64,000 bases of DNA from contig LFLA01000022.1 of assembly GCA_001542995.1 (NCBI GenBank), positions 92,587 to 156,586 of the forward strand, read 5' to 3'. This document shows, one piece after another, positions 4,193 through 58,201 of the stretch. How positions within the stretch are numbered: position 1 is the stretch's first letter; each line of letters begins with the position of its first letter. Made by a program: the position numbers and the translations under genes. The notes under the pieces are model-generated. The model was not told where the DNA came from. It did not search any database and saw only the letters and a program-made list of their open reading frames with translations. This DNA is from Nitrospina sp. LS_NOB (lineage in GTDB: Bacteria; Nitrospinota; Nitrospinia; Nitrospinales; VA-1).

Positions 4193-5614
4193 TCAGCAAT
4201 TAAATAATCGCTTCCACCCTAAAACAACACCGGTAACGCTGAAACCAAAGCCTATAGCAAGAAGTGACAATATCACTATATCCCACAGAGGTCTATGGTT
4301 GGCGAGACCGGGAAAATCCAAGCTGTGCAAACCATTATAAAACCAACGATAGACCCGTCGACTCTTATCCATAATTGACACAATTTGCCCAGAGTCCATA
4401 TCAACATGTATCCAGGTTTGTGCTGGATCATCTAATTTTACTCTGAGTGTATTTGAAGGAAGCGAACCTTCGCGGAGTTGCCCGTAAAAATCAGACTCTT
4501 TAGGCCATTGGGTAGCTTTGATTCCAACATCTGGCCAGGCCTTCTGGACTGCTTTAATGATTTCTGGTTCTGTGTGCCTGGCTGGAGAAAGAATACTTGT
4601 CTTGGAAGGTTTAAACATTTTCAGCCCTTTTGAGTTTCTGGCGAGGACAAAAGATTTTCCGCCTGTTGCTATAAACTCCACCTCACTGAAATTCTCTAAA
4701 AGTTTTAAGGCTTCTAGAGAAACAGATTCCACAGCTTGCTCTAGTGATAACGCGCGGAAATTTTTTATCTGGTGAAATTCAGGGTCTGGTTTGGAAAAAA
4801 GTCGCCCATGATCCATAGATAACCACCCACTAAATATCCAGGTTAGGACAATTATCCCTGCAAACAGTCCCAGAATATGGTGCATACACAACCAGCCTTT
4901 AAAGGGACTTCTACCTGATGCGCCACGAAAGCGAATGATACCCAGTAGCAGTCCAGCCAATGTTGTCATCACACCCATCAGGGAAATCCACCAGACCACT
5001 TGATCCCATAAAACCCAATTGCTTCGTAAGACTGTGGGGTAGATCCAGTGAACAATTGCGCCTATATAATTCCAGGCTCGCTCCCTGGCCTCGGTTTTCT
5101 GCAGAACTTCCCCTGTCCGCATTGAAACATATAACACGGTTTCATTTTGGTCCTGCATAGAAACGCGATAAAACGGGCGATAGGGATCATAACGGTTCGG
5201 CACAATCCATTGATCGTAATCGATAGGCCCTTCAACTCTTAAAGCAGATTTTCCGGAAAAATTTTCCGCTATCCTTCCGGCTGATCTCATTTGAAGAAGA
5301 TTTATCGGCTTGCCATCGTGTGCATCCACAACCTTTATCCCGCTATTGAGGCTATGGAGTACGTAAATGGGGCGCCCTTCCAAATCGATCAACCTGAGAC
5401 GGTCCAGATCAATACTTCCGATGGCCTCGGCGGCCTCTATTGGGGAAACAGTAATCTTTGAGAAGTCGACCTCAGCCCTACTGGAAAGTCGGTCCGCTTG
5501 CGAAAGCGATGGGAAAGGATGGTAAATCAGAACGGCGCCACTTAAAAACCAGGCTGCAAAAAATAAACACAGGACAACCCCCATCCAGCGGTGAGCCAGT
5601 GTTAGATAGCGCAT
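4193..5614 (-). CDS. PepSY-associated TM helix protein (PiuB-like)
   Basis: The opening MRYLTLAHRWMGVVLCLFFAAWFLSGAVLIY and 4 TM segments around periplasmic domains are typical of PepSY-TM proteins found next to TonB-dependent receptors. Confidence 0.7.
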   Translation of the reverse strand: MRYLTLAHRWMGVVLCLFFAAWFLSGAVLIYHPFPSLSQADRLSSRAEVDFSKITVSPIEAAEAIGSIDLDRLRLIDLEGRPIYVLHSLNSGIKVVDAHDGKPINLLQMRSAGRIAENFSGKSALRVEGPIDYDQWIVPNRYDPYRPFYRVSMQDQNETVLYVSMRTGEVLQKTEARERAWNYIGAIVHWIYPTVLRSNWVLWDQVVWWISLMGVMTTLAGLLLGIIRFRGASGRSPFKGWLCMHHILGLFAGIIVLTWIFSGWLSMDHGRLFSKPDPEFHQIKNFRALSLEQAVESVSLEALKLLENFSEVEFIATGGKSFVLARNSKGLKMFKPSKTSILSPARHTEPEIIKAVQKAWPDVGIKATQWPKESDFYGQLREGSLPSNTLRVKLDDPAQTWIHVDMDSGQIVSIMDKSRRVYRWFYNGLHSLDFPGLANHRPLWDIVILSLLAIGFGFSVTGVVLGWKRLFNC

Positions 5615-5632
5615 AAGGTTTACCCGATTTAC

Positions 5633-7802
5633 TTAAAAATCAAACTGAGCGCTGATTTCAAAGGCTCGGGGAGATCCCAGAATTAACTGGTTCGAATAAA
5701 ATTCATCGCCCCAAAGTGCATAAGCCTTATCGAACAGATTTGTCAATCTTGCAGTGTAACGTCCATTTCCTTTGCGATAGGTAGCATGGAGATCCACCGT
5801 TTCGTAGCCCAGCATTTTCACTGTATTGAACCTGGTGTTAAAACGGTCATCAACATAACGAAAACTACCCCCCACATCTATGGGAAGTCCTGCAACACCG
5901 CGATAATTAGTCCAGATATTAGCCACCCATTCAGGAACATTGGACGGGGTATTGCCGGAGACGTTTTCGAAAACACCGAACTCTGCATCGGTATAGGCGG
6001 TGTTGGCTCCGACTCGCCATTTTGGTGTCACCAAAACCGAACCTTCTAGCTCAAATCCGGTGGACCTCTGGCCTCCATCGCCACCCAGAACACTATCGTT
6101 CGAATCTTGTATCAGAATATTTTGCCTTTCAATGTGGTAGACGGCCAAAGTCATTTCTGCTTTCCCATTCAGGAACTTGGACTTCAACCCCGCTTCCCAT
6201 TGTTGCGAAGTAGAAAGGTCAAAGTTCTGGTTACTATTGACAAGAAAAACATCTGATCCTAATGGATCGGTGCCGGAACTCATTTGGGCATAAACGTTCC
6301 AGGATGGAGCAATTTCGTAAACCGCACCAACCCGCCAACTAAAAGGATTATAGGTGCGTTCAAATGATGTTCCAGGAGTAGGATCATTAAAGTTTAGCCG
6401 AAATAACTCTATATGATCCTGACGCATGCCCACGACCAGTCTTAATTTCTCTGTAACTTTTAAAGTATCCTCAAAAAAAGTAGAAACCGTGATAATTCGG
6501 GTAGGATTAAGCCTGAAGTTTGTCGGGTTTCCCCCAAAGGTACCCCCAACGGGTGAAAAAGGGTCGACGGAGCCTGGATCTGCGAGCGGCTGGGACTTTC
6601 TTTTAAAATCCACATAACTTGCATCGACACCTAAAAGAGACTGGTTCTCCATCCCGGCAATGGAGTTTTTATAGGTTGTACTCAGTCGGTTACCAACAGT
6701 GTTTTGGTTATGGGCCACAAAAAAAGTATCACGGTCAACCAAGCTTGTTCCGGAATTGAAGGTATAGTTTTCTGAATTGCGCCATTCCCGGTCCGCATTG
6801 AGGAAGTAGGTATAATTGCGAAAAAAAAGTTTATTGCTGTGTTTCCATTTGGCATCTATCGTTGTTAAAATTTGATAGGACTTTGCCACCTCATCATCAA
6901 CATTGTAATTGACAAACCGCATGGGCTCGTCGATGGCCGCTCCAGCCCCTGTCACGACACCGGTGAGAGGCTGGGTGGCAAATGCTTCTGTCACTATGGG
7001 GGTCCCCCAATAGTTTTGCAGTTTATCTTCCAGGTAATCAATGCCGAAGGTCACATCCAACTGATCATTAGGCTTCCACAATAGCGAACCATTGAAGTTT
7101 CTTGATTTGGGATCGGCATTATCCACGTATCCATCCGAGCTGTATTCACTGCCATCGATCCGAAACCATAAGTTTTCACTCATTTGCCCACCTGCCCCAA
7201 CACCGAGCTTGACCGTGTCATAGCGGCCGTAGGAGGTTAGAAGCTCATAAGAGTTTGAGCTTTCCATCTTCGGTTTTTTGGTGACCATATTTAAGGTCGC
7301 GCCAATGGCCCCCTGACCATGCAATACTGAGGCAGGACCTTTTAGAACCTCGATCCGATCCAGATTGAAACCATTTTGAGGCCGCCCGGTGATTAAAGCC
7401 GGCCCCAACCAGATTCCGTCCCGTTGAATCATGACCTGGTTGGAGGTAAAACCACGCATGGAATAATTGGCAGGCTCTGCAGGAGGGTTTCCCCAAACGA
7501 ACCCGGGAGATCGCTCGAGAGCTTTCCCCACCTCCTGATACCCCCCACCCTTCAATTCAGCGTTGCTGATAACGGTTATTGAGGCCGGGGTTTCAAAAGC
7601 TGGCAGGTCCAGACGACTACTGGTATCGGGAGAAAAATCGAAATTAAATACACTCGGAGTAATGAGTAGTTCGTCCAACTCGATAATGGGCGGGGGGGGA
7701 TACACTCTCATTATTTGCAGCATTTTGAGCCCAGGTAACGGAAAATGCATAGAGTGATGCAATTAAAACTGTTATTACCCCGATTGCTAATTTTTTACTC
7801 AT
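5633..7802 (-). CDS. TonB-dependent outer-membrane receptor; the signal-peptide exon (ATG at 7802) is out of frame with the barrel ORF at a C8 tract (G8 on the + strand, 7692-7699)
   Basis: Plug and barrel motifs are present (ITVISNAELK, IEVLKGPASVLHGQGAIGATLNMVTKKP) and the C-terminus ends in an aromatic residue (...EISAQFDF). GGAGATAACAATG at 7802-7814 encodes MSKKLAIGVITVLIASLYAFSVTWAQNA..., which joins ...PPPIIELDELL only if one C is removed. Confidence 0.8.
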
Positions 7803-7820
7803 TGTTATCTCCGTGCGCGC

Positions 7821-7859
7821 AAAAAAAAACCTCGCGCCTCCTTTGGGAGGTTCGAGGTT
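7821..7859 (-). terminator. riboswitch attenuator terminator (leftward operon)
   Basis: On the - strand: AACCTCG / inner CCTCC-CAAA-GGAGG / CGAGGTT followed by T9. It lies between the aptamer and the receptor RBS. Confidence 0.7.
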
Positions 7860-8080
7860 GATTGCACCCTGATTTACTTCATCAACATTTGAGCAACCAC
7901 CCAGTATTCCTCGAGAGGTGGCACCCTTATTTATTCCAGGCAGGTCTTCTGACTCGCGTTCACCCTACTTTCTGCACCTTCCCAGCTAAACACCAGTGGC
8001 TTTTCGCAGATTTCGTCACGCTCACAGCGGCGGGACCGTGGTTGAATTTCGCAACCTTCCCTATTATTTCCTGAAAGAAA
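7860..8080 (-). promoter_or_regulatory. cobalamin (AdoCbl) riboswitch controlling the TonB-dependent receptor operon
   Basis: - strand core GGGAAGGTTGCGAAATTCAACCACGGTCCCGCCGCTGTGAGCG ... GCCACTGG ... GGGAAGGTG ... B12 box GAGTCAGAAGACCTGCC. A candidate P1 pairs TTTCAGG with CCTGGAA. Confidence 0.85.
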
Positions 8081-8804
8081 ATCAAATTTTCGCTTCCAGG
8101 AAACCTGAAAAACTTCCGCTAGCATAAATGAAAAAAATCAGGCGTCAAGTAATTTATAAAAAACACCCTAAGCATTAGGGCAACTGCCTGTTAACCTGAG
8201 ATATTCAATTTTCCCTGTTCCAGTAAAAACAAGCAGTTCCCCGCCTGCATGAAAACCGAACTCCTCATAAGGATTTTTTAGCGCCCAATGCTCTCCGAAA
8301 GGAAAGGCCAGTGGCTTTAATGAGATGAAGAATAAGTCCTAACAAATATTCATACTTTGTCTGATACTGCGCTATCCGAATTCTTATTATCTTTAGAAAA
8401 GCTGAAAGGGTATTGAGAGTATCGGGTAACCGAGGCGCAGGAGTTTTCCTAATCTTGCGCCGGTTCGGTTTTTCAAGACGTTCACCTACTGGACCTGCTC
8501 CCTCCCTCCGCATGGTAACCTCTCCCTCCATAATCTTAGTTTTCATGAAAAGCGTTGAAGCTAAACCCTAATCCATAATTCGTTTGACCCAGACCATTGA
8601 CTCCTTCTCCCTCTGAACTCACCGGTATATCTACCCAGCTAAAATATACCCATAACACCTTGAATTTAAGGGACATGAAACTGGGAGAAACGCGCATTTA
8701 AGTAGACAACCAACCAAAAATCAAGGAAATGATTGAAATTGCATTTATTACTTGTAAATATCTGGAAGTTCTACAATAATGTCGCTTGAAATTATATGTT
8801 TTAG

Positions 8805-54074: not shown

Positions 54075-54413
54075 TCATCAGTTCTCATGGACCTTTGATG
54101 TCCCACCCCCACAAATCTCATGAGGCTGTGAAATCCTCCAACATTAGTTTTATGCCCTATAGGAGGGTGCTGGCGGCGGTTCGCCGCTTTTCCTAGGCTA
54201 AGGGGCTATCCCGTCGGTGCTCGCAGACGGATTTCAGTTCGACCAGGGCGTTGACAATACCGGAGATTTCAGCGATGAAGAAGTTGGGGTCAATGAGATT
54301 TTTTGACGCTGTAATTGCCCAGGCATAAACCGGCTCAGTTTTATCCCAAATTATTTTTCGGATACAATGAATTTCATTACTCCTTATAACTTATTCTTAC
54401 TAAAGCGTGAACC

Positions 54414-55946
54414 ATGCCAAAACCTAACAAGTTCCCCACGCAAATTCCTGGAATAAAAGTTACACAATGGCTAGAGGAATGGAATGAAATTCACTTTGAC
54501 AAGAAAACTTATAAGAAAAAACCAGAACCTTGTTTCTATATATTTTCTCTCTCTGCACCTATTTTACAAAGTTTAAGTGGAATATACCCCAGAACTACAA
54601 AAGGCGGCCAAAGACGTTCCCAAGATCTTGGAATCCAAAGGCAGCATGAAAAGCCTAGGTCCGAAGAAATTAACCAATTTATACACTTTGGTTTTCCTTG
54701 GTCAGATTTGAGCGAGAGGAAAAGGCGATCCCAAGAATTTTCTGATCTAAGAAAACCCGGTTGGTTGCCTACGGCAATTGTTGTAAACATTCTTATTCCA
54801 AATGATAAAAGGCAGGGGAAAAATATTTCTAAGGATGATTTGATCACTATTCAAGAAAAAAATTCAAACGTAAGTCTAAACCTTCCAAAGAACTTTAAGT
54901 TAGGTAGTTGGAAGCCTAAAGGGCTCCCTCCCATAGAAATTATTGACGGTCAGCATCGCTTATGGGCATTTGAGAAAACTAATCTAAAGGGTGACTTTGA
55001 ACTTCCAGTAGTTGCTTTTTATGGTCTAGATATAAGCTGGCAGGCTTACCTCTTTTGGACGATAAATATCAAACCCAAACGGATCAACCCAAGTCTTGCA
55101 TTTGATCTTTACCCACTCCTTCGAGCAGAAGACTGGCTGGACAAGTTTGAGGGCCATTCTATCTATCGTGAAACAAGAGCTCAGGAACTTACAGAGGTTT
55201 TATGGTCTTACCCTGAAAGCCCTTGGTATCAAAGAATTAATATGTTGGGGGAACGTGGTTTAAAAAAACCTATGGTCACACAAGCGTCTTGGATCCGATC
55301 TTTAATGGCAACCAATGTCAAATCCTACAAAGGCTCTAGGGTAAGAGTTGGAGGGCTTTTCGGTGCACCAACAGGCAAGCACGAAACCGTTATTGGCTGG
55401 AATCGGCCACAGCAGGCAGCATTTTTAATTTTAATGGGGCAAATTCTATTTGAAACGGTAACTAACTGCACAGAAAATTGGGCAAAAGCCTTAAGAAAAA
55501 ATGCTATGAAACCACTTTTCGGCAAAGAGGACCCGGCCTTACACGGACCACATACTCTGATTAATACAGACCAAGGTATTAGAGCAATTTTATATATATT
55601 CAACGACCTTTTTTATGTTCGAGCTAAGGAATTGAAACTTGAGAGCTGGTCATTTGGCTCAATTGAAACAGATGATACGACCATAAAAGAAGCACTTTCA
55701 TCCTTAAAAAACAGAAAAATGATTGTTAATTATTTTAGGGAAATTGCTAATTGTTTAAAAAAATTCGACTGGCGTACTTCAGCGGCATCCGGATTGACAG
55801 AAGACGAGCAAATTAGAAAATCGGCTTTCAGGGGAAGTGGGGGTTATAAAGTGCTTAGGATCCAATTATTAAAACCTTTATCCTTAGATAAAAAAGACGT
55901 TGGAAAAGCTAGTAAAGATGTTTTAGCGTACTTGGGTTCTAAATAA
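54414..55946 (+). CDS. DGQHR-domain (DndB / ParB-Srx fold-like) protein
   Basis: Literal motif PPIEIIDGQHRLWAF. Upstream basic blocks (GGQRRSQDLGIQRQH) are as in DndB-like proteins. At 510 aa it has a long C-terminal extension. Confidence 0.7.
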   Translation: MPKPNKFPTQIPGIKVTQWLEEWNEIHFDKKTYKKKPEPCFYIFSLSAPILQSLSGIYPRTTKGGQRRSQDLGIQRQHEKPRSEEINQFIHFGFPWSDLSERKRRSQEFSDLRKPGWLPTAIVVNILIPNDKRQGKNISKDDLITIQEKNSNVSLNLPKNFKLGSWKPKGLPPIEIIDGQHRLWAFEKTNLKGDFELPVVAFYGLDISWQAYLFWTINIKPKRINPSLAFDLYPLLRAEDWLDKFEGHSIYRETRAQELTEVLWSYPESPWYQRINMLGERGLKKPMVTQASWIRSLMATNVKSYKGSRVRVGGLFGAPTGKHETVIGWNRPQQAAFLILMGQILFETVTNCTENWAKALRKNAMKPLFGKEDPALHGPHTLINTDQGIRAILYIFNDLFYVRAKELKLESWSFGSIETDDTTIKEALSSLKNRKMIVNYFREIANCLKKFDWRTSAASGLTEDEQIRKSAFRGSGGYKVLRIQLLKPLSLDKKDVGKASKDVLAYLGSK

Positions 55947-57272
55947 ATGCCGCCTCTCAGATCCACGCTTAATAACGCCTCTAGAAGTGCAGTTCGCAAT
56001 TCATTTAAAAATCTAGAAAAACACTTTTCCGATAGAAGATGGATAGGCCCAAGAAATTACTATAAGACCGACTGCATAAACAGGTTAAGTAATTCTCCAA
56101 GGGAGTCTCAATTAGCTCAATATATTGCTGCATCTGCACCTGTTCATTGCATGGACGGTTGGGGTTTTATAGGAAGGGCTTTGGATTGTTTAGCAAAAGG
56201 AGACACCTATGTATCGAGGCACCTGGGATATTATGCCGAATTAAGAGCTACAATGGCTTTATTGGCGACTGAAGGAATTGGAATTTTTAACCAAAAACAT
56301 TTTATAATAAATGGTAACAACCAGTGCACCAGAATCTCTCAAAACATGGGAACCCATGACATGGCTTGGAGTGCTTTAGAGACCTGGGCAAACCTACCTC
56401 AATCCTCCAGTCTTTTGGGTGAAATTATTTCAAGTCACAGAATATCTTTAATGGATTGGATGATAGGATTTTTCCCTGGAGGAGGGTTTCCAACAATCGG
56501 AACGACTTGGTTAAAAGCATGGGGAGTAGATTTAAGAGAAATAAGTAATGATAGAGGAATTCGAAATGAAGCTAGTTATAGACCTACAAGGTTAAATAAT
56601 ATTGCGCCCCAGCCTCCTAATGAGTGCATACAATTTATCAATGAATTTTGGACCCTATTTGAACCAAGCGAAAGTTTACCATTTAGCAACCTCGACCAAC
56701 ATTTGGCGAGAGAAAGTTTAGATAAAATTTATAAAAGTATTACAGGAAAAAGACCAAATCCTGCTACTAAAAAATTCACCCAACTCATTAATTCAACGGT
56801 AAACCACTTTTTTGACCCCATCACCTCATTAGTCAGTAATAACTATTTGAAAAAATTTTTTACTAGAGCTGTTCAACCCGAGACGCCGAATTTGATTAAA
56901 TATGCTGAAAAGCCACCCTCGCTAACAGATCCAGACCTTCATTTCCAAATTATATCTCGTGCAGCTCTTCTTCTAAGAATAGCCACTGGAGCTACTGCCC
57001 AGCTATTTAAACATCAAAATCTAGACAAAATGAGTTTAGATTTTTGGTGGAAGCCACTAGGGGAGGAACGTGGTTTTTGGGAACCCGGCAATGAACCTAG
57101 TAATTTTTCTGACCTGTGGGCAGATCTAGAAGTGGTTTTGAATGAAGAAAAGAGTTGGAGAGAACAAGTGGGGAGTGCTCTTAGTTTTAATTCCTGGCAT
57201 AATAATAATTCGGATTGCATCCAAAAACTAGGAGGCTGCGAAAGAATTGCCTTATGGGGTTTCGGGTTTTAA
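55947..57272 (+). CDS. hypothetical 441-aa protein, no motif recognised
   Basis: The ATG immediately follows the TAA of the DGQHR gene. Clean ORF with the same AT-rich composition. Confidence 0.6.
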   Translation: MPPLRSTLNNASRSAVRNSFKNLEKHFSDRRWIGPRNYYKTDCINRLSNSPRESQLAQYIAASAPVHCMDGWGFIGRALDCLAKGDTYVSRHLGYYAELRATMALLATEGIGIFNQKHFIINGNNQCTRISQNMGTHDMAWSALETWANLPQSSSLLGEIISSHRISLMDWMIGFFPGGGFPTIGTTWLKAWGVDLREISNDRGIRNEASYRPTRLNNIAPQPPNECIQFINEFWTLFEPSESLPFSNLDQHLARESLDKIYKSITGKRPNPATKKFTQLINSTVNHFFDPITSLVSNNYLKKFFTRAVQPETPNLIKYAEKPPSLTDPDLHFQIISRAALLLRIATGATAQLFKHQNLDKMSLDFWWKPLGEERGFWEPGNEPSNFSDLWADLEVVLNEEKSWREQVGSALSFNSWHNNNSDCIQKLGGCERIALWGFGF

Positions 57273-57316
57273 ATTGTCAAAAACTATCCAGAACTAACTT
57301 ACCAGAACTAACTTAA

Positions 57317-58129
57317 ATGAAAAATTCTAATTACAACATCCTTCCTCCTCTTAAATGGGCTGGAGGAAAACGTTGGTTGGTAAACGAACATTTAAATCTA
57401 TTTCCAAAAAATTTTAACCGGTATATTGAACCTTTTTTTGGAAGTGGGGCCGTTTTTTTCAAATTGCAGCCACCAAAAGCGACTCTCTCTGATTTAAATA
57501 GTGAGTTAATTGAAACCTATAAATCAATTAAGAGTGACTGGAGGAAAGTATTCCAAGCTTTAAAAACACATCAAAGACTTCATACAAAGGACTATTATTA
57601 CAAAGTAAGAGCACAAAAGCTAAAAGCCCCATACTCTAAAGCGGCCCGTTTCATTTACCTGAATAGGACCTGTTGGAATGGTTTATATCGGGTTAATTTA
57701 CAAGGAAATTTCAATGTCCCAATAGGCACGAAAACCAAAGTGATTTTGGATTCAGACGATTTTGAAGGGGTCGCCAAATTATTGAAAAATTCAAGACTAT
57801 TGGCAGAAGATTTTAAAACAATTATTGAGCAAGCAAAAAAGGGCGACTTTTTATTTGTCGACCCACCATACACTGGGATGCACAATCAAAATAACTTCAT
57901 AAAATATAATGAGAAATTATTTAGTTTAGACGACCAAATTCACTTAAACGATTCCCTTGTCAAAGCCAAAAAAAGAGGGGTGAAAATTCTTTTAACAAAT
58001 GCCTGTCACCCTTTTGTCAAAAAGCTCTACAAAGACCATTTTGAAATGATTAGAGTTAGCAGAAAAAGTGTTATTGCTGCAAATCCTAAAAACAGAACCC
58101 CCATAGAGGAGTTTGTCATAACTACTTAA
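57317..58129 (+). CDS. Dam-family (D12 class, alpha-type) N6-adenine DNA methyltransferase
   Basis: LKWAGGKR, EPFFGSGAVF (FxGxG) and FVDPPY (DPPY), in alpha-class order. Confidence 0.85.
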   Translation: MKNSNYNILPPLKWAGGKRWLVNEHLNLFPKNFNRYIEPFFGSGAVFFKLQPPKATLSDLNSELIETYKSIKSDWRKVFQALKTHQRLHTKDYYYKVRAQKLKAPYSKAARFIYLNRTCWNGLYRVNLQGNFNVPIGTKTKVILDSDDFEGVAKLLKNSRLLAEDFKTIIEQAKKGDFLFVDPPYTGMHNQNNFIKYNEKLFSLDDQIHLNDSLVKAKKRGVKILLTNACHPFVKKLYKDHFEMIRVSRKSVIAANPKNRTPIEEFVITT

Positions 58130-58201
58130 ATGCAAATAAAAAAGAGGGGCTTAGTTAATACAGGAACGGCAACCACATCGGGGTTTGGGCGCGGTAGTTC
58201 T

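Follow-up and report, generated by a model that had tools for sequence, protein, structure and literature searches.

Proteins carrying the DGQHR or DUF262 version of the ParB fold work with DNA-modification systems and bind or hydrolyse nucleoside triphosphates (NTPs) (PMC10853773, PMC12839542, bioRxiv 10.1101/2025.10.10.680097). In SspE, DndI and GmrSD (BrxU), a DUF262 ParB-fold NTPase is joined to a DUF1524/HNH nuclease, and SspE senses phosphorothioate marks; the two halves of the last of these, GmrS and GmrD, can also be separate proteins (PMC4619093). Within the DGQHR group, DndB is reported to act as an ATP-modulated repressor that limits phosphorothioation, and DpdB, of the 7-deazaguanine Dpd system, as an ATPase that is needed for modification and drives the insertion of preQ0 (PMC4507180, PMC10853773, PMC12839542). 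A further arrangement, an operon type in which a HEPN protein, a ParB nuclease and a DNA methylase are combined, was predicted by Anantharaman et al. in 2013 (PMC3710099). The present analysis concerns a three-gene cassette that invites comparison with these systems, found in a 64,000-nucleotide stretch of the genome of Nitrospina sp. LS_NOB (contig LFLA01000022.1, positions 92,587 to 156,586; the whole of this stretch is referred to below as the window), in which a gene for a protein of 441 residues, here termed X, is situated between a DGQHR gene and a gene for a Dam-family DNA methyltransferase.

The interpretation that we prefer, and to which we assign a probability of roughly 0.5, is that X is an obligatory partner of the DGQHR protein, and probably the effector, in a mobile defence cassette that resembles a restriction-modification (R-M) system and includes a co-transcribed DNA-marking enzyme. 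For neither X nor the trio of DGQHR protein, X and methylase could a publication, a family in Pfam or NCBIfam, or a model in PADLOC be found; X constitutes a new protein family without a recognised fold, and the trio is a variant within the theme of ParB-fold, modification-linked defence.

When placed beside the systems described above, the cassette displays both shared and distinguishing features. Like SspE, DndI and GmrSD, it combines a DGQ[Q/H]R ParB/Srx-fold NTPase with a second module and with a link to DNA modification (PMC10853773), the NTPase motif being located in the separate upstream protein, where residues D178 to R182 are invariant. Unlike GmrSD and SspE, its second module is a separate protein of no known fold, and the mark associated with it is usually N6-methyladenine (m6A) rather than phosphorothioate; in addition, neither X nor the DGQHR protein matches the Pfam DUF1524 or HNH models that define the His-Me finger nucleases. 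The DGQHR domain is shared with DndB and DpdB, but the canonical forms of those proteins are approximately 350-380 residues long and have no X-like partner, whereas the DGQHR protein of the cassette has about 510 residues. The pair in the window is followed by dam and housekeeping genes, with no adjacent dndCDE; among the examined loci, L005, L011 and L024 alone have that gene set after the pair. Like Type II R-M systems with Dam-class methylases, the locus is a compact mobile cassette with a D12-class adenine methylase, contains a potential cognate methyltransferase in its operon (Dam, at 57317-58129), and occupies a slot that in sister genomes holds R-M genes. It differs from those systems in having no recognisable endonuclease fold, and in that a pair of proteins, including a ParB-fold NTPase, would make up its candidate restriction half.

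Coupling of X to DGQHR and modification genes

The gene for X is a single intact frame, and its ATG at 55947 directly abuts the TAA of the DGQHR gene (55944-55946), so that both the long clean reading frame and the stop-to-start abutment described in the original prediction, which was made from the DNA letters and their translations, hold exactly. The identities that it had given to the two neighbours were borne out as well: the upstream protein matches TIGR03187 with 65.3 bits (against a cut-off of 58.85), and the downstream protein, in which a DPPY motif is present, matches TIGR00571 with 254.8 bits, Pfam MethyltransfD12 with 187.9 bits and PADLOC MTase_II with 313.7 bits. The DGQHR protein does not reach the cut-offs of other models of its group (Pfam DndB, 26.9 bits and below the cut-off), and it stays far under those of the DndB-type equivalog TIGR04172 (69 bits with a cut-off of 450) and of DpdB (21 bits with a cut-off of 300). 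In PADLOC-DB 2.0 it matches only DpdB (E = 4e-4), Dam matches generic methyltransferase models, and X matches none. The DGQHR pentapeptide is located at residues 178-182 of the 510-residue chain, and the residues that are invariant among these proteins include Q75-R76, D178-G-Q-H-R182, F214 and N218. A profile search of the PDB with the alignment of the DGQHR protein gave 0 matches.

The description of X as an orphan had to be abandoned. A search of clusters at 90% identity returned 919 relatives (E<=1e-3), each approximately 430-470 residues in length, all of them labelled 'hypothetical' and with zero precomputed Pfam domains, and an exhaustive profile search, run over 1.84 billion representatives at 50% identity, recovered 1,224 at E<=1e-3, of which 881 reach E<=1e-30; the best 150 are all single-domain proteins of about 450 residues. 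The family extends across many bacterial phyla and into the archaeal genus Methanoregula; it is also carried on seven IMG/VR contigs, and no homologue was found in the phage GenBank collection. X itself has no match in Pfam, NCBIfam, PHROG or PADLOC. When 32 family members were compared with Pfam at E<=10, the matches were single and scattered and no family recurred, and NCBIfam yielded no match for X proteins of the Dnd-linked, the distant or the Zymomonas branch. The possibility that X is a paralogue of part of the DGQHR protein was rejected (hhalign probability 0.3%).

The evidence that carries the proposed partnership comes from 80 X loci in species-representative genomes, which represent more than 15 phyla (among them Planctomycetota, Acidobacteriota, Verrucomicrobiota, Cyanobacteriota, Chloroflexota, Actinomycetota and Pseudomonadota) and one archaeal genus, Methanoregula. 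A DGQHR homologue of 500-530 residues (44-60% identity) lies directly upstream of X in 79 of these loci, and the 80th is cut by the end of its contig. The distance from the DGQHR stop to the X start is mostly -4, -1 or +1 to +3 nucleotides, with overlapping codons being usual. The pairwise identities of the two proteins are correlated (r = 0.83), and X is the fastest-evolving of the three cassette proteins, with a mean identity of 35%, as compared with 47% for the methylase and 50% for the DGQHR protein. Given this coupling of their genes and their co-evolution, the DGQHR protein and X very probably act as one complex.

The association with DNA modification is nearly as regular. A six-frame search with hidden Markov models at the 77 loci that have enough downstream sequence found a modification gene linked to X in 71, of which 52 have a long D12-class adenine methylase, 14 have Dam, three have dndCDE and two have another methylase (their arrangement is given in Table 1); in 61 of the 77, a D12-family methylase starts between -60 and +400 nucleotides from the X stop, often overlapping it. 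The linkage to DGQHR and methyltransferase genes that was seen in the window thus recurs among the homologues at large (79 of 80 and 71 of 77 loci, respectively). The original prediction had further cast X as the most likely effector or specificity component, should the island serve defence or modification; the part of that proposal that concerns its genetic partners stands, and the part that concerns its activity found no corresponding support. Neither profile searches nor Foldseek recognised a nuclease or other catalytic fold.

The same three genes are encountered in a much more distant branch. Three IMG/VR contigs encode a DndB-like protein of 506-521 residues, an X-like protein of 404-430 residues that is only 20-27% identical to X, and a long D12 methylase of 396-397 residues; the ends of these genes overlap, and in one case an integrase adjoins them. 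Retention of the trio at that distance indicates that the three-gene unit is old and has been selected as a unit.

Table 1. Features of the cassette in the window, and placement of modification genes at the X loci surveyed
Feature	Position in window	Strand	Loci	Basis or remark
X, 441-residue helical protein of an unnamed family	55947..57272	+		single uninterrupted reading frame, translationally coupled to the DGQHR gene
DGQHR (DndB-like, ParB/Srx-fold) protein, 510 residues	54414..55946	+		TIGR03187 match
Dam-family (D12-class) N6-adenine DNA methyltransferase, 270 residues, third cassette gene	57317..58129	+		TIGR00571 match
N-terminal conserved core of X, residues 45-222	56079..56612	+		alignment and domain model
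Two tandem 14-nucleotide units, AACTATCCAGAACT / AACTTACCAGAACT	57282..57309	+		fill most of the 44-nucleotide spacer between X and dam
Low-GC body spanning the three genes	54500..58000	.		GC (guanine plus cytosine) profile
Long D12-class methylase (~383-397 residues), start located at the X stop			50	
Dam-type methylase, start located at the X stop			11	
D12-family methylase one gene off or upstream			5	
dndC (PAPS_reduct), dndD-like ABC ATPase and dndE (PF08870), with dnd_assoc_4			3	
N6_Mtase or MT-A70 enzyme			2	
No modification gene within reach			5-6	

Predicted structure and conserved residues of X

An AlphaFold2 model of X, generated with a 32-sequence alignment, was of high confidence (predicted local distance difference test score, pLDDT, 90.6; predicted template-modelling score, pTM, 0.92) and is composed almost entirely of helix, with one small beta-hairpin at residues 119-129. 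This agrees with the all-alpha fold anticipated in the original prediction from two helix-rich stretches, both of which are present in the translation (residues 91-114 and 335-354). The maximum 19-residue hydropathy of the chain is 1.19, and X therefore has no membrane helix. The N-terminal domain (residues 45-222), when predicted separately (pLDDT 81.3), displays two long helices, the beta-hairpin and further helices.

Comparison of the full model with the PDB by Foldseek gave nothing significant (best E 0.2, template-modelling (TM) score below 0.2), and no significant match was found in BFVD; what was returned from the two databases was membrane-protein or coiled-coil noise. The N-terminal domain gave weak matches to ferritin and rubrerythrin four-helix bundles (E 0.15, TM about 0.3, root-mean-square deviation 8-10 Å), which were not accepted as homology and were attributed to generic similarity between helical hairpins.

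A deep alignment of 16 sequences, which includes the distant branch and extends down to 20-22% identity, established the pattern of residues under the strongest constraint. Invariant positions in the N-terminal domain are H67, G71, W72, H92, Y95, Y96, E98, L99, R100, G110, T136, H137, W141, W147, G193, D195, D202, R206, N207, S210 and Y211, and those beyond it are W235, P240, R338, L343, W367 and G376. Position 70 is Asp or Glu in every one of these sequences. Approximately 17 polar or aromatic residues are invariant to 20% identity, almost all of them within residues 67-211, R338 being the only one in the C-terminal half; positions conserved in at least 95% of sequences number 15 in residues 50-110 and 13 in residues 136-215. 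In the model nearly all the polar invariants map to helices 53-83 and 87-108, to the first residues of helix 136-148 or to the segment 195-211, which is the least confident part of the prediction. Judged from the alignment, a cluster of this kind is what an active site or a ligand pocket typically shows, as opposed to a passive scaffold, and its three invariant histidines, together with the acidic residues, would suit a putative metal centre.

The segment R206-N207-x-x-S210-Y211 raises the question of whether X is a highly divergent HEPN-type RNase, close to the MAE_28990 family, that would serve as an abortive-infection enzyme gated by the ParB-fold NTPase. The motif lies at the start of a helix and has the spacing of the R-N-x3-H motif; X also possesses two long helices followed by a hairpin, with an invariant Glu in the second helix; and a ParB-fold protein and a DNA methylase are encoded alongside it, as in operons of the HEPN group. 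Moreover, in another genome of the same genus the gene for a DUF262 (GmrSD_N) protein is translationally coupled to that for an HEPN_MAE_28990 protein with the motif RNNIAH. The histidine that defines the HEPN motif is, however, Tyr211 in all 32 sequences of the close alignment and all 16 of the deep one (X in the window has R206-N207-E-A-S210-Y211); the corresponding R171, N172 and H176 are invariant in a 32-sequence alignment of MAE_28990 proteins. None of the 32 X family members matches a HEPN Pfam family at E<=10, alignment of X profiles (N-terminal domain and deep alignment) with the MAE_28990 alignment by hhalign gave probabilities of 0.16% and 0.15%, and no HEPN structure is present among the top 50 Foldseek matches listed for either the full model or the N-terminal domain. 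A HEPN identity for X is accordingly improbable in our judgement, and the substitution of Tyr for His, the absence of a HEPN Pfam match and the lack of HEPN structures among the top Foldseek matches together argue that the protein should not be filed under that name.

The operon logic of MAE_28990, ParB and methylase nevertheless represents the closest published analogue of the DGQHR-X cassette: in those predicted operons (PMC3710099), as here, a ParB-fold protein and a coupled helical partner with R-N-x3-[H/Y] are accompanied by a DNA methylase. X departs from the MAE_28990 proteins in its length (441 as against about 250 residues), in its Tyr at the HEPN histidine, and in that no profile similarity to them and no HEPN structure among the listed Foldseek matches was found. 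The same-genus pair mentioned above (G073, locus L089, 1411-3241, minus strand) consists of a 360-residue DUF262 protein and a 253-residue HEPN_MAE_28990 protein, and is situated beside a DUF927/primase-like gene. By analogy, it may be regarded as a ParB-fold and helical-effector module comparable to DGQHR-X, although the ParB-fold partner of X is of the DGQHR/DndB type and not of the DUF262 type.

A mobile island in a variable slot

Several lines of evidence establish that the cassette has been mobile. The GC content is 0.34-0.43 within the three-gene island and 0.45-0.52 in its flanks, which contain housekeeping genes (a TPR protein, a PEMT/ICMT-type methyltransferase, a sulfite reductase-TusA fusion, yicC and gmk), and this low-GC body marks the three genes as a horizontally acquired island. 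Among 31 related genomes, including 18 of the same genus, X occurs in a single one. The segment that separates the TPR and PEMT/ICMT genes (54075-58201 in the window) differs in its contents from one genome of the genus to another: in one (G007, L093) it contains a complete type I R-M system (hsdR, hsdS and hsdM) with an embedded pair of genes for a nucleotidyltransferase and a nucleotidyltransferase-substrate-binding protein, and in another (G014, L092) a different D12 methylase and an unrelated protein of 448 residues without a Pfam match. The occupation of this slot by R-M-type genes in sister genomes makes it a hot spot for modification-based defence cargo. The PEMT-type gene at its edge looks broken in two genomes (G006 and G007), where the matches are split over frames and one TGA is found.

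A copy of the trio is also carried by a plasmid. On the 30,952-base-pair Zymomonas plasmid pZZM405 (L094, NC_013788.1), positions 4481-8143 encode a DGQHR protein of 496 residues, a hypothetical protein of 440 residues and a Dam protein of 266 residues, and twins of this plasmid that carry the trio exist in strains CP4 and NRRL B-12526. While pZZM405 is recorded as belonging to strain ZM4, its sequence derives from Zymomonas mobilis strain CP4 (PMC5930841), and the methylome of ZM4, which displays no GATC methylation (PMC8432527), consequently has no bearing on the cassette. A DUF4433/macro-domain gene pair is located about 1.9 kb downstream of the plasmid trio.

Two repeats were observed around the methylase gene of the window. 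The tandem 14-nucleotide units upstream of dam (Table 1) may be a regulatory site or a junction scar. In addition, a 13-nucleotide direct repeat, ACTTAAATG[A/C]AAA, occurs at 57311-57323 and again at 58124-58136, 813 nucleotides apart, so that one copy includes the dam start codon and the other its stop codon. This second repeat could be a scar left when cassettes were exchanged, in keeping with the several replacements that the modification gene has undergone in the X family, and it could equally be due to chance in AT-rich DNA. A scan of the island for promoters and terminators found no excess over the expectation from shuffled sequence.

Proposed role of the cassette

In the mechanism that we propose, the modification enzyme would mark the DNA of the host, with a Dam-type m6A mark in this organism and with the products of long D12-class enzymes, other adenine methylases or DndCDE elsewhere. 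The DGQHR protein would function as an NTP-driven DNA-binding switch, in the manner of DndB, DpdB and the DUF262 domain of SspE and GmrSD, and X would supply the effector function, most likely a hydrolytic attack on unmarked nucleic acid. The candidate active site comprises H67, D/E70, H92, Y95, E98, R100, H137, D195, D202 and the R206-N207-x-x-S210-Y211 segment, all within the N-terminal helical domain, and the faster-evolving C-terminal half may be responsible for recognition or for contact with the partner.

If this interpretation is correct, a widespread cassette (approximately 1,200 clusters at 50% identity, from many bacterial phyla and a methanogen) would be added to the known modification-based immune systems. 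The existence of a confident model of X with no detectable relative in the PDB implies that the chemistry of the effector or sensor may be new, and the association of one and the same pair with several families of adenine methylase and with Dnd genes could reveal how ParB-fold DGQHR proteins are coupled to DNA marks. The 31-kb plasmid of Z. mobilis CP4 provides a copy of the trio in an organism that is culturable and non-pathogenic (PMC5930841). A bolder generalization, which we advance tentatively and rate at somewhat short of an even chance, is that DGQHR-X and its swappable marking enzyme form a widespread immune system in which the pair acts as a modification-agnostic reader and effector, the mark of self being m6A or phosphorothioate and the effector having an enzyme fold that is not in the PDB.

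A number of observations weigh against a restriction-like role. X offers no recognisable nuclease or other catalytic fold, whether in a profile search of the PDB with the X alignment (0 matches) or in the Foldseek comparisons reported above (full model, best E 0.2; N-terminal domain, best E 0.15), and DndB, to which the partner is related, has been described as a regulator and not as a restriction factor (PMC4507180, PMC10853773). On a tree built from the concatenated pair, the modification partner has been exchanged repeatedly (Dam on at least 4-5 occasions, Dnd once, and N4/N6 enzymes twice), which is hard to fit with classical sequence-specific restriction, unless the same motif is marked throughout or the modification is read indirectly. 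Finally, an intact pair with no modification gene nearby is found at L008, L039, L044, L049, L053 and perhaps L010, and two of the genomes in which such solitary pairs occur have no D12 methylase at all. Repeated exchange and solitary pairs fit better with an indirect reader of modification, or with a DndB-like controller of it.

The latter idea leads to the principal rival explanation, in which the DGQHR-X pair would be a modification-control module that regulates or assists the adjacent enzyme and does not restrict foreign DNA. DndB and DpdB, as repressor and modification ATPase respectively, are precedents for such a function; the pair occupies the position of dndB before dndC-dndD-dndE in three loci; a swap from one modification chemistry to another would be easier for a generic controller than for a sequence-specific nuclease; and the tandem 14-nucleotide repeat lies just upstream of dam. 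Nonetheless, the strict co-inheritance of about 950 residues would be a heavy cost for the regulation of a single methylase of 270 residues, and Pfam and NCBIfam scans detected no helix-turn-helix or other DNA-binding regulator domain in X or in the DGQHR protein. The invariant polar cluster of X resembles that of an enzyme, the island behaves as defence cargo (with its low GC content, patchy distribution and a slot shared with R-M systems), and the solitary pairs have no modification gene to regulate. On balance we regard such a control module as unlikely. The three loci concerned (L005, L011 and L024) are all cyanobacterial, L011 being a plasmid scaffold of Pseudanabaena biceps, and upstream of the pair they carry dnd_assoc_4 (TIGR04062), a Uma2-family nuclease-like gene and a second DndD-like ABC ATPase.

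The solitary pairs also bear on a second rival explanation, namely that the pair provides defence by itself, in a Type IV-like or abortive-infection manner and with no need of a modification enzyme, and that methylases are only its fellow travellers in defence islands. Some of these pairs, from about five loci that have no adjacent modification gene, stand beside Mrr-type or other defence genes, and the split GmrS/GmrD and SspE-type enzymes demonstrate that a ParB-fold NTPase and an effector can act as a unit (PMC4619093). Set against this, a modification gene accompanies X in 71 of 77 clusters, with a start that usually overlaps the X stop, and the trio has been kept together across the deepest split of the family, an association far tighter than co-occurrence within islands; complete independence of the methylase is thus very improbable. 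A cassette in which X and the DGQHR protein operate together with a marking enzyme remains our preferred reading.

Defence-type neighbours were also encountered at other X loci, and include Mrr, a Schlafen/AlbA_2-domain protein and a PLD-helicase. Downstream of the solitary pair of Methanoregula (L044, 9359-14536), on the opposite strand, lie genes for a Schlafen/AlbA_2 protein, a DndD-like SMC-type ATPase and a PLD-domain helicase, which look like a further defence cluster. An apparent fusion of X to a methylase at L070 (7971-10448, 826 residues) was considered as a possible Rosetta stone and rejected: its residues 387-446 correspond to an Arg-rich, out-of-frame reading of the C-terminus of X, so that the gene is a frameshifted copy and not a true fusion. 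L070 also has a truncated DGQHR gene, and a second decayed copy, L025 (6372-7961), contains a stop codon in its DGQHR frame.

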